Below are positions 18,843-28,707 of a stretch of 64,000 nucleotides of DNA, piece after piece (the stretch's first letter is position 1; the number at the start of each line of letters is the position of its first letter). The notes below the pieces were generated by a model that was not told the origin of the DNA, did not search any database, and saw only the letters and a list, made by a program, of their open reading frames with translations. The translations under genes were made by a program, and so were the position numbers. Source of the stretch: an uncultured Planctomycetaceae bacterium (GTDB taxonomy: Bacteria; Planctomycetota; Planctomycetia; Planctomycetales; Planctomycetaceae); contig CAWFGE010000013.1 of NCBI GenBank assembly GCA_963815195.1, forward strand, positions 256,001 through 320,000. The letters are read 5' to 3'.

Positions 18843-20155
18843 ATGAAACAACAAAAAGGCCGAAACAGTTTCTGTGGTTCGCCGGAGCATCCCATCAGCC
18901 GGCGGGGATTCCTCGGAACGACCGCAGGCCTCGGAGCGGCGGCGTTTGCGGCGGACATGACCATTCTCGATCACCTCAAAAACCCGCTGATGGCGGGCGA
19001 GCTCAAGAAGCAGCAAAAGCACGTGATCCTGTTGTGGCTCGCGGGCGGGGCCAGCCAGCTTGAAACCTGGGATCCCAAACCGGGCCGACCGACCGGCGGC
19101 CCGTATCGGCCCATCAAAACCGATGTCCCCGGCATCGAGATCAGCGAGCTATTGCCCAAGATGGCCCAGCGGATGAAGCACACCGCGATCATCCGCTCGC
19201 TCAACACCCGCATCGCGGACCACGGCGGCGGCGCGAGCCTGATGGAACTCGGCCGCCGGCAGGAGCCGGCCTTCAACTATCCCGACCTGGGGGCCATGTG
19301 CGCCCGCGAACTGCGCGGGCCGACAGCCCGGTGCCGGATTACGTCTCGATGTACTCCTCCACCGAAGGCCGGCGAAAAGGCACGTCCGGCTTTTTGGGTT
19401 CGCGGTTCGCTCCCATGTTCCTCTCGGACAAGATGGTGCCCGAAAACATCAATCGGCCCTCAGGCATCAGCGAAGTCGATCACCAGGCCCGAAACGACCT
19501 GCGGGAACTGTTGGCGAATCGTTTCGAGCGGGAGCGATCCACCAACGTCATCGCCAGCCACAACTACGCCTACCAGCGCGTGCGGGGTTTGATGGCCAGC
19601 GAGGAACTGTTCGACATCACCAAAGAGCCGCAAAACATGATCGATCACTACGGCCCCACGCAGTTCGGCCAGCAGTGCCTGATCGCCCGCAGGCTCGTCG
19701 AAGCCGGCGTGCCGTTCGTCAAAGTCGCCCGCGCCTGGTGGGACAGTCACGGCCAGAACTTCGAGACGCACCGCGAACTGTGTGCCGACCTCGACCACGC
19801 CATGACCGCCTTGATCGACGACCTCCAACAGCGAGGCCTGCTCGAACACACCCTGATCATCACCTTGGGCGAGTTCGGCCGCACGCCGCGGATCAACGCG
19901 AGTCTCGGACGCGATCACTTCGCGAGCGCCTGGAGCACATCGCTCACCGGTTGCGGCATCAAAGGCGGCTCCGTCTACGGCAAGACCGACGACGACGGCA
20001 ACACGGTGAAGGAGGGCGAAATCAAAGCCGGCGACCTGTTCGCCACGATCTTCGACGCGTTGGGCATCGGCCACAAAACCGAATACTACATCGGCTCCCG
20101 CCCGATCCCCATCGTGGACTTCGGCTCGAAACCGGTCAAAGAAGTCCTCGCCTAA
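18843..20155 (+). CDS. DUF1501 domain protein, Tat-exported (frameshift near 19313)
   Basis: SRRGFL Tat motif and LLWLAGGASQLETWDPKP, then ARRLVEAGVPFV, WDSH and GEFGRTPRIN..GRDH. One missing G (CTG[G]CG) joins the two ORFs. Confidence 0.9.
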
Positions 20156-21764: not shown

Positions 21765-22894
21765 TTAACTCGGCCGCGTGCCGGGCATTTGGCCGGAGAT
21801 TTGATAGACGTAGGCCATGATCTCCACGAAGACTTCATACATATCCAGCGGGATCTCCTGGCCGATTTTCACCTGCTGATAGAGCGCCCGCGCCAGCGGC
21901 TTGCGTTCGATGATCGGGATGCCGTGGCTCGCCGCGATCTCGCGGATCCGCCGGGCAATCTCCCCTTGCCCCTTGGCAATGACCGTCGGAGCGCTCATCG
22001 TGTTGGGATCGAATTGGATCGCCACCGCGATGTGCGTCGGGTTGGTGATGATCACATCCGCATTGGGCACCTGGCCGAGTTCGCGGGCCTGGGCGAGTTT
22101 GCGGTGCGTGTCCCGGCGGCGCATCCGCGTGGCGGGATCGCCCTCAAAATTCTTCAGTTCATCGCGGACTTCCTGCTTCGTCATCCTGAGGTCCCGGGTG
22201 AGCTTCCACCGCTGGAACGCATAGTCGATGATCCCTAAGACGATCAACGCCGCCGCCATCTCGAATGCCAATCGAATCGCGGAACTCCACAGATAGGCCA
22301 TCAAAGGCGGGGCGATCGCCCGCTCGCGGAAGTCGTCGCCGGGATCGTCCTCCGCCGTGGTTTGCCATTCCACGTCGAGAATCGCCAACGTGTGAGGCAT
22401 CGCGCGGGACACAAACAGGACTGCGATTGCGACCACGATCGTCAACTTGCCCAGGCTCACGCCCAACCGCATCACCGATTGCACCGAGAACAGCCGCCCG
22501 AAACCGGTCAGCGGATTGATCCGGGCAAAATTCGGCTGAAGCGATTCCCAAGAGACGAGAAACCCGAACTGCATCAGGTTCAAAGCCACGCCCACCAAAA
22601 CCATCGACGCCATGATCGGCAGCACAATGGGCGCGGCGAATTCCAAGAGCGCCCTGAGTTGATGGACCGCCTCGCCGGGCTGCAATTCGATGCTCGGTTT
22701 TTCGAGACGGTGATGAAGCATCTCGGCCAGCGAGCGCGTGCTGGACATCCCGAAAAAGAGCATCACGGCCGCCGCCGCGAGCATCCCGCCCGCCGCGTTC
22801 AAATCGGAGTCTGCGCAACCTGGCCTTTCCGCCTCGCCTCCTGCCGGCGAAACTCGGTCGGCTCCTCGGTGCGATCGCCAAAATCCTCGGGCAA
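21765..22894 (-). CDS. flhB: Flagellar export switch FlhB (frameshift near 22808)
   Basis: TTG start after AGGAG gives MPEDFGDRTEEPTEFRRQEARRKGQVA. The next frame has RINPLTG, LRMTKQEVRDE, the ITNPTH autocleavage motif and KPLARALY. Confidence 0.92.
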
Positions 22895-22920
22895 GCGGAC
22901 AAGCTCCTAATGCGAAACGA

Positions 22921-23918
22921 TCAATAACCCACAAGCGTCACCTTGAGCCGTTCGATCACGACGGGAATTAAATCGACAAGAAGATGCGCGGTGCCCGCCA
23001 GCGACAGCGAGAGGATGAAGATGTTGATCAACGCCCGGATGGGAAAGCCGAGGTTTAACACGTTGATTTGCGGGACCGTGTGGCTCAAAAAACCCATCGT
23101 GAGCGCCGTGAAGGACATCGCGACCAACACCGGAGCCGCGACTTGGATTCCGAGCACCAGCGACTGGTGCACGAGATTGCTGATCAGATCGGCGGCCGGT
23201 TGCGAGATCCAAGCCTCTCCGACGGGAATTGCTTGAAAGGTGTCTAACAGCGCGGAGACGACCAACAGATGCCCGGGCACCGGCGGCATCGTCAAGAACA
23301 CCATCATGCCGAACAGATAGAGCACTGCCCGCTGAGGCCCGCGTTCACGCCGAAGCCGGGGTTAAATACGCTGCTCAAGCCGATGCCCGTTTGCTGGTCG
23401 ATCAACTCCCCCGCAAGCTGGAGTCCGGAAAATACAATGGATAGTCCTAGGCCGAGAACGAATCCAAACGACAACTCCCGTGCCGCAACAACGCTCCAGC
23501 CCAAAAGCGAATGCGGCGTCTCGAAGCGATACCGCCATTCCCGGCGGGTGATCGGAAAATCCTTGGGTTTGCCTTGCTCACGATTGAGCCGCTCGAACCG
23601 GGCATGCTGCGCTTCGGGGACTTCCGCTTTCGTCAATCGGCCGTCGCGGTTTCGATCGAACTCGGCAAACGCCCGCCGGGCTTGATTGGGGAGCGCCGGC
23701 GTGACCAGAACCGCGCAGGCGATGACGATCAGGATCCGGACCTGGGCCGGCACCGCGGATTGGCCGAGGAGCGGCCCGACAAGCATCAATCCGCTGATTC
23801 GCACGAAGACGAGCGAGAACAGATAGAACTGGGCGATCGCCGCGCTTAAGAGCCCTGACTGACCGAGGGCGAGAAAATCCGGCCAGAGATTCCCGAGAGC
23901 GTGTTGTGCGGGTTCCAT
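22921..23918 (-). CDS. fliR: Flagellar export gate FliR with inserted EF-hand (frameshift near 23325)
   Basis: LVFVRISGL..P, ELSFGFVLG, QLAGELIDQQTG, then GHLLVVSALLDTF, IQVAAPV and PQINVLNLGFP. Lies between fliQ and flhB. Confidence 0.9.
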
Positions 23919-23963: not shown

Positions 23964-24230
23964 TCAAAACGACGAGGGAACTTGCTGAAACAGATCTTGG
24001 GAGTATTCCACGATTTCGCTAATGACCCAAGGCAGCGTATAGAGCACGGCCAGCATCATCGCCACAATCTTCGGAACAAAACTGAGCGTCTGGTCTTGAA
24101 GCTGTGTGACAGCTTGAAACATGCTGATCACCAGCCCCACGGCGATCGCGGTCAATAGTGCCGGCGCTCCGATCAACAGCGACAGCACCAGGGCCGATCG
24201 CATCAATTCCACCGCATGGTCTGGAGACAT
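23964..24230 (-). CDS. fliQ: Flagellar export gate FliQ
   Basis: VGLVISMFQAVTQLQDQTLSFVPKI. Confidence 0.95.
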   Translation of the reverse strand: MSPDHAVELMRSALVLSLLIGAPALLTAIAVGLVISMFQAVTQLQDQTLSFVPKIVAMMLAVLYTLPWVISEIVEYSQDLFQQVPSSF

Positions 24231-24269
24231 CGGCGGCGCCCCTTCGATATTCTCGTTCATTGACAATTG

Positions 24270-25205
<936 letters not shown>

Positions 25206-27047: not shown

Positions 27048-27182
27048 GATGGGTTATGAGGAAATCCAGATTAAAAGACGGGCGCGGAACGCGATCATCA
27101 AAACGGACCGGCGGCGGCTTGCTGTGAAAACCGTTCCACGTTTTCAGATGACGGGGATCGGGACAGGACTCGAGCGTCCCAA

Positions 27183-27927
<745 letters not shown>

Positions 27928-27928
<1 letters not shown>

Positions 27929-28707
27929 CAAGCGGCCTCTTTCTCGCCGGCGTTTCGTTCGTTGGCGGGAAGCATCGTGTTCAGTTTTTGCTCCAGCACC
28001 CGCGGGTTGTCCCCCTCCTGGATGGCTAAAAGTCCGCGGACGATGACCTCCCGAATCTCGAGCTCGCGTTTGCTATAAAACGCCAGCTTGTCGGCGAACG
28101 GGAGAAAAAACAGGTTGGAGACGATCGCCCCGTAAAGCGTGGTGATCAAGGCCACGGCCATCCCCGGGCCGATGGCTTCGGGGTCGTCCATGTTGCCGAG
28201 CATGATGATCAGCCCCATCAACGTGCCGATCATTCCAAACGCGGGAGCATACCGGCCGACGGTATCCATCAGCGATTTGCCGGTTTTATGCCGTTGGCTG
28301 ATGGCCTCCATTTCGGAACGGAGGATCGCCTCCATCAGCTCGGCATCGGTGCCGTCGACGGCCATTTGGATCCCGAGGAGGACAAACGGATCGTCGATGT
28401 CGGCCGTTTTGTTTTCCAAGGCGAGAATCCCGTCCCGCCGGGCCAGTTCGGCGAACTCGATCAGCTGCGCGATCACCGGCCCCATGTCCTTGGTGTTCGG
28501 CATAAACACTTTTTTCAGGATCTTGGGGGTCGACAGCAACGTGCGGAGCGGGAAGGCGATGCAGCACGCCGAGATCGCTCCGCCGATGACCACCGCCGCG
28601 GACGGATAATCGATGAACGAACTAAAGCTCGATCCGGGAGCGATCACAATGGAGAGCAGCAAAAGCGCCACTCCCATCGCCAAGCCTCCCACCGTTGCCT
28701 TATCCAT
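27928..28707 (-). CDS. motA: Flagellar stator MotA/PomA
   Basis: ARRDGILALE, APAFGMIGTLMGLI, GPGMAVALITTLYG, IQEGDNPR. Confidence 0.95.

Follow-up and report, generated by a model that had tools for sequence, protein, structure and literature searches.

The window, by which we mean the whole 64,000-nucleotide stretch of DNA from an uncultured Planctomycetaceae bacterium analyzed here, encodes a FliR carrying a real, conserved, and family-restricted EF-hand graft in what is a core subunit of the flagellar export gate. The graft is shown by homology to donor repeat units, by its position in FliR, by its conservation, and by its predicted fold. Its function is most likely structural, with calcium gating a minority reading. 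The gene, the insert, and their surroundings are laid out as follows.

23322..23918, minus strand: 5' part of fliR, residues 1-199, which holds the insert (PF01311 positions 2-113)
22921..23322, minus strand: 3' part of fliR, equivalent to residues 200-332 of its relatives, here in another frame (PF01311 positions 114-226)
23323..23324, no strand: one-base frameshift, probably an assembly error (run X1 contig; relatives unbroken)
23514..23681, minus strand: EF-hand-pair insert, residues 80-135 (loop length, pLDDT, structural matches)
23658..23681, minus strand: helix leading into hand 1, modeled as a continuation of FliR core helix 58-87
23622..23657, minus strand: intact EF-hand loop 1 (D88, N90, D92, G93, L95, E99), then the invariant P101
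23577..23615, minus strand: single helix 102-114 between both loops (model)
23535..23573, minus strand: degenerate loop 2, with G at position 1 and P at position 3 but retaining hydrophobic 8, E12, and an aromatic residue at 13
23964..24266, minus strand: fliQ (context; PF01313)
24270..25205, minus strand: fliP (context; PF00813), whose periplasmic domain falls opposite the insert by profile alignment
21765..22934, minus strand: flhB (context; PF01312)

The minus-strand reading frame 23918..23304 is the 5' part of fliR within a fliN-fliO-fliP-fliQ-fliR-flhB run; FliR is a single copy in the genome, located between fliQ and flhB of the flagellar cluster. The 5' part shares 81% identity with residues 1-199 of the unbroken 332-residue FliR of a related genome (G070), and the 3' part 91% with residues 200-332. 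PF01311 is covered over the whole model across the two frames, with both matches above cut-off. The break lies at about 23323, 191 nucleotides from the end of the insert, close to the 200 given by the first-pass annotation. A run X1 contig (more than 99% identical, depth 3.4) crosses this point with one extra base and one substitution; read by hand, the extra base joins the fliR frames, and the residue at the joint is the same as in P0002 and P0003. Given this extra base and the unbroken FliRs of close relatives, including P0003 with 332 residues, the frameshift is probably an assembly error, a correction drawn from a single contig of depth under 5 that would be weak alone; none of the aligned contigs reaches the insert itself (about 23541-23669), which speaks neither for nor against it. 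An origin of the insert as a frameshift artefact or part of a pseudogene is ruled out, since unbroken orthologues carry it and an independent contig holds the extra base.

Several other frames in these assemblies are broken. In the window, motB (27098-27931, minus strand) is frameshifted near 27350, and motB of G070 (L240) is frameshifted within about 15 bases of that point, apparently at a different base; the same gene is open over 251 residues in G058 and 261 in G028. The two breaks are probably independent assembly errors, the alternative being a real slippery site. One gene at 18843-20155 (plus strand) seems to be split into two overlapping frames near 19320, likely an assembly error, and fliP of G070 (L240) is split over several frames in its assembly.

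Between the conserved ends P74 and E148, the FliR of the window has 75 residues, compared with 23-30 in short-loop FliRs of the family and 23-28 in all 30 FliRs taken from the phylum's other families; about 48 residues have thus been inserted, in keeping with the roughly 50 first proposed. By sequence alignment, the insert replaces residues 61-72 of Salmonella FliR, the loop after the second hairpin helix, which has about 10 residues there versus 63 here, and the earlier view that canonical FliR has only a short loop at this site holds for Salmonella and the 30 other-family proteins alike. Loop 1, DRNRDGRLTKAE (residues 88-99, nucleotides 23657..23622), lies where the first-pass annotation had placed it. 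It has D1, D/N3, D/N5, G6, a hydrophobic residue at 8, and E12, and it matches the PROSITE pattern PS00018. In shuffles of the 60-residue insert region, PS00018 was matched once in 20,000 and a strict pattern never in 20,000. Pfam EF-hand models match residues 79-103, inside the PF01311 match, with E values of 2e-4 to 1e-3 and scores of 18.9-24.3 bits, below the curated gathering cut-offs of 25-30; EF-hand_6 is matched by 30 of 49 inserts at E values up to 0.1. The second hand that had been described as degenerate is indeed present, and its loop is canonical in none of 50 scorable FliR inserts.

How widely is the motif kept? A FliR search of 151 family genomes gave matches in 121, and loops were compared in 89 of the best-scoring family loci (the window's own excluded) together with the 30 from other families. 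Fifty-nine of the 89, from 38 of 58 coded genera, have a P74-E148 stretch of 70-85 residues with D1, N/D3, D/N5, E12, and P14, and the insert is kept at FliR identities down to 34%. The others comprise 24 with stretches of 23-30 residues and six with loops of 40-72 residues that lack the motif. Because this set had been ranked by a query containing the insert, the comparison was repeated with core-FliR patterns as the means of finding loci; of the 142 obtained, the 80 that scored best against an insert-bearing sequence were used, and in these the motif occurs in 70 of 70 loops of at least 60 residues and in none of the 10 shorter ones. Among the distinct homologous long loops pooled from both sets, D1, D/N3, D/N5, E12, and P14 are kept in 98 of 98, G6 in 64, and a PS00018 match in 71. 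The liganding residues, whose conservation among insert-bearing homologues the first-pass annotation had made the test of its proposal, have thus been retained throughout.

An alignment of 69 insert-bearing FliRs has 19 invariant columns, D88, E99, and P101 being three of them; the insert varies more than the core (2.4 versus 1.5 bits), and its surface residues outside loop 1 vary. The insert has a dN/dS of about 0.06, and the core one of 0.03, among 11 close relatives (L133-L143), rough figures given that dS is near saturation. The loop comparison, the long-loop test, the shuffles, and the conservation in all 98 loops together rule out a chance motif or a quirk of one strain. Loops of 40-72 residues without an EF-hand occur at the same site in L063, L075 (g45), L079 (g61), L082, L092 (g52), L080 (g68), and L211; these are decayed copies or independent insertions, and the site seems prone to insertions.

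Where did the insert come from? When its profile was compared with 1.84 billion representative sequences, the best 150 rows were filled by multi-EF-hand proteins, matched over the whole length of the profile in 4-32 stretches each. The unit repeated in these proteins consists of loop 1, an E-x-P motif, one helix, and loop 2. A spacing of 25 residues between the loops is shared by 139 of 215 donor units (drawn from 109 of the best 150 proteins) and 37 of the 50 FliR inserts that could be scored. Of the 215 donor units, 115 have a canonical loop 2, versus none of the 50 inserts, from which we conclude that FliR kept one site and dropped the other; a glycine at position 1 of loop 2, as in FliR, is already found in 29 of the 215. 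Repeat proteins such as P0024, P0030, P0066 (named in its source 'Ca2+-binding EF-hand superfamily protein'), P0070, and P0116 thus share whole-unit homology and equal spacing with the insert, but they contain several units, often with a canonical loop 2, and at least some start with a signal-like hydrophobic stretch, whereas FliR holds one unit in a membrane machine, its loop 2 dead. Similar units are encoded in the genome of the window at C13:553022-555016 and C21:127948-128934. Derivation of the insert from the periplasmic domain of FliP is ruled out, as the FliPs examined have no such loop and a full-unit donor exists.

EF-like loops are common elsewhere in this genome. A loose EF-like pattern is matched by 48 reading frames, among them shadow or dockerin-like frames, and single loops are scattered over many exported or membrane proteins that have nothing else in common, some with pilin-like N-termini (for example, in G000, C12:244041-245084, C12:727622-729523, C18:52812-54560, and C19:134859-136664).

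AlphaFold2 was run on the orthologue from G070, which shares 81% identity with the 5' part; its model has a mean pLDDT of 90, with 90-97 in the insert. In Foldseek, the full model matches FliR chains with an E value of 1e-8 and a probability of 1.0. FliR/SctT structures (8wk3_E, 6f2d_F, 6s3r_F) belong to the same family and share its fold and the fliP-fliQ-fliR-flhB gene order; the TM-score of the model on the target is 0.75-0.84 for the flagellar chains. In the model, helix 58-87 runs without interruption from the core into the first hand, bridges form at 94-95 and 123-124, and the only helix between the loops is 102-114. The models show the helix-loop-helix paired through a two-strand scaffold, with loop 2 supplying the second strand and one helix serving between both loops. 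Modeled alone, the insert has a pLDDT of 79, and its top structural rows are EF-hand proteins with Z scores of 4.3-6.1, a middling range that counts here only on account of EF-hand proteins filling almost all rows; Foldseek with the insert-only model returned no match at an E value of 0.001 or better, nearly all of its top rows again being EF-hand proteins. The insert is therefore predicted to fold as an EF-hand pair that continues a FliR helix.

Its position in the gate can be approached through FliP. A FliR-FliP profile alignment, weak (probability 4%, E 0.0098) yet in register at three anchors, sets the insert opposite the periplasmic domain of FliP. FliR is described as a P+Q fusion that lacks this domain in the accessible part of Kuhlen et al. 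(bioRxiv 10.1101/249128), and the weak alignment together with this published equivalence suggests that the domain and the insert occupy equivalent positions in the shared P/R fold. The two differ in that the FliP domain is unrelated in sequence, has no EF-hand loop, and is found in all FliPs examined. In the accessible parts of Johnson et al. (bioRxiv 2020.12.05.413195) and of PMC11739650, FliE and the FliF i-loop contact FliP and FliR in this region. We infer from these comparisons that the insert lies at the periplasmic wall and not near the plug that shuts the gate at its base, with the FliF i-loop, FliE, and the FliP periplasmic domain as candidate neighbors.

In a draw of 301 genomes of the class, with G000 counted apart, a FliR-family gene is found in 70 of 73 Planctomycetaceae genomes and in 173 of 227 others. 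Among 17 candidates scored per genome, a profile of the insert and its flanks was matched over its full length in G000 and 34 of the 70 FliR-bearing family genomes, as against none of the 173 from other families. Since the remaining 36 of the 70 gave no full-length match, flagella can be encoded without the insert. By their labels, carriers are Planctomycetaceae, including sequences labelled Gimesia (L136-L141). Two carriers bear other labels, L168 (a short contig in a Phycisphaerae bin) and L176 (Rhodopirellula); as their loops resemble those of the family, labelling or binning errors are suspected. Separately, a second, divergent flgB-flgC-fliE and fliR set is apparent at L213 (G017), L215 (G039), and L216 (G124), and second FliR-family matches occur in G051, G060, and G124, which suggests that some family genomes have two flagellar systems.

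Trees built without the insert columns require 8 state changes over 99 rows, and 7 over 49 rows once 13 long-branch insert-free genera and duplicates are dropped. Insert-free FliRs with loops of 25-29 residues are nested in carrier clades (g54 with g18 at a support of 98-99; g8 inside a clade at 99), and this nesting, found at starred branches, suggests one gain followed by several clean losses. The number of losses is uncertain, since a single clade of carriers is not rejected by the AU test (p-AU 0.064).

We tentatively favor the following model, in which the insert is a calcium-loaded structural module in the gate's periplasmic wall. One unit of a multi-EF-hand repeat would have been captured in the short loop of FliR by an ancestor that gave rise to much of the Planctomycetaceae. 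Within the FliP5-FliQ4-FliR1 gate, the position of this loop would be the one at which each FliP holds a periplasmic domain and FliR normally has none, and the graft would give FliR an outward-facing domain of its own, filling a gap in the wall round the rod socket. Free calcium in the periplasm is far above cytoplasmic levels, so loop 1, binding one Ca2+ there, would normally be loaded. The ion may make the small domain more rigid, an effect that the uninterrupted helix 58-87 would pass on to the FliR hairpin, with loop 2 acting as a folding partner only. The module would thereby aid the assembly or stability of the junction between gate, rod, and MS ring, and the opening and closing of the channel would not be its role. 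The ligands kept in all 98 homologous inserts and the predicted EF-hand-pair fold make a Ca2+ site in loop 1 likely, and the retention of one site without a cooperative pair counts for the structural reading.

Two systems offer partial precedents. As a working analogue we use GspG, the major pseudopilin of the type II secretion system, whose calcium site is not known to be a canonical EF-hand. It belongs to another machine, its binding has been measured, and its site is native, not grafted. According to the accessible part of PMC10574481, GspG holds Ca2+ at acidic residues in a periplasmic part of the secretion system and needs it for function. Mycobacterial GyrA likewise has an EF-hand-like site, a calcium-type loop that one lineage has in a linker of a housekeeping machine, as described in the accessible part of PMC3479174; unlike the FliR insert, it is cytoplasmic, is not a helix-loop-helix, and comprises a single loop.

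A close rival, which we consider somewhat less likely, is that the insert is a tolerated passenger in a permissive surface loop. Its ligands would then be kept only to avoid the harm that misfolding of the insert would do to FliR, and it would vanish upon clean deletion. Insert-free FliRs inside carrier clades, with at least 7-8 state changes, and the 48 EF-like frames of the genome, many with single loops, would fit this explanation. So would the rod and ring proteins: in FliE, FlgC, FlgB, and the first 330 or so columns of FliF, inspected by eye in the alignment portions listed for 27 loci with and without the insert, no indel matches its presence. This finding and the absence of the insert from about half of the family argue against a needed role. 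A mere passenger is harder to reconcile with an insert found in 38 of 58 genera and in FliRs of only 34% identity, and with four side-chain ligands kept in 98 of 98 loops, among which no half-decayed copy was found, although the long loops without an EF-hand in L063, L075, L079, and L082 may be decayed copies; the unrejected single carrier clade also leaves the supposed losses uncertain. A separate difference concerns FliE, which was not found with PF02049 in 6 of 13 insert-free genomes (G007, G010, G044, G056, G087, G091) versus 1 of 19 insert-bearing ones, the genomes being kin and not independent. Five of the six lie on fast-evolving FliR branches, and the absence may reflect divergence or decay of the flagellar system; we draw no conclusion on the insert from it.

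The first-pass annotation had proposed calcium-sensitive gating or assembly of the export apparatus. In such a sensor, loop 1 would fill and empty over the environmental or periplasmic range of calcium, and the change, relayed by helix 58-87, would change how the gate opens at its periplasmic end or how FliE and the rod dock, and with it rod nucleation. The invariant ligands and the predicted continuity of the entering helix with the core helix speak for a sensor; the accessible part of bioRxiv 2020.12.05.413195 adds that the gate flexes open at its periplasmic end to nucleate the rod, with FliR seeding one protofilament. Calcium also controls the related Yersinia injectisome, a shared link between calcium and type III export, but through other parts, namely the YopN-TyeA plug and the needle and not an EF-hand in the gate, in an injectisome and not a flagellum (accessible part of PMC3565153). 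We nevertheless regard a sensor as unlikely. Two live, cooperative loops per lobe, as in calmodulin-type sensors, are not what the insert has, loop 2 being canonical in none of 50; the site would be far from the plug at the gate base, and G6 is present in only 64 of 98 loops. With one loop able to bind, and with about half of family FliRs lacking the insert, several of them with a short loop, calcium-sensitive gating is unsupported, while the calcium site itself is likely and an effect on assembly or stability plausible.

More improbable still is a module for plain protein contact whose loop takes up Mg2+, a lanthanide, or no ion at all. Lanmodulin is among the structural matches (Z 5.6), tied with calcium EF-hands, and the Pfam scores below curated cut-offs would suit this possibility as well. 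The marks of lanmodulin, proline at loop position 2 and aspartate at 9, are however missing, with 0 and 2 of 59, respectively, and the invariant E12 is a mark of Ca2+ preference in EF loops.

In the main texts of the mostly open-access papers searched, we found no description of an EF-hand insert in FliR, nor of any added domain in this loop, and the word calcium is absent from the accessible part of PMC13710759. FliR is a core, conserved part of both flagellar and injectisome export gates, and as a conserved EF-hand shows that this loop can hold a folded domain, the loop becomes a candidate site for tags and a marker for cryo-EM. The insert further provides a natural test of whether the periplasmic domain that FliR lacks matters for rod nucleation, and it offers a direct route to asking whether calcium acts on the type III gate itself. 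With carriers among the sequences labelled Gimesia, a genus that has cultured motile species, such a test is practical. Should the sensor reading prove true, a type III gate would have a calcium sensor built in, and flagellar assembly in these planctomycetes would be tied to calcium.
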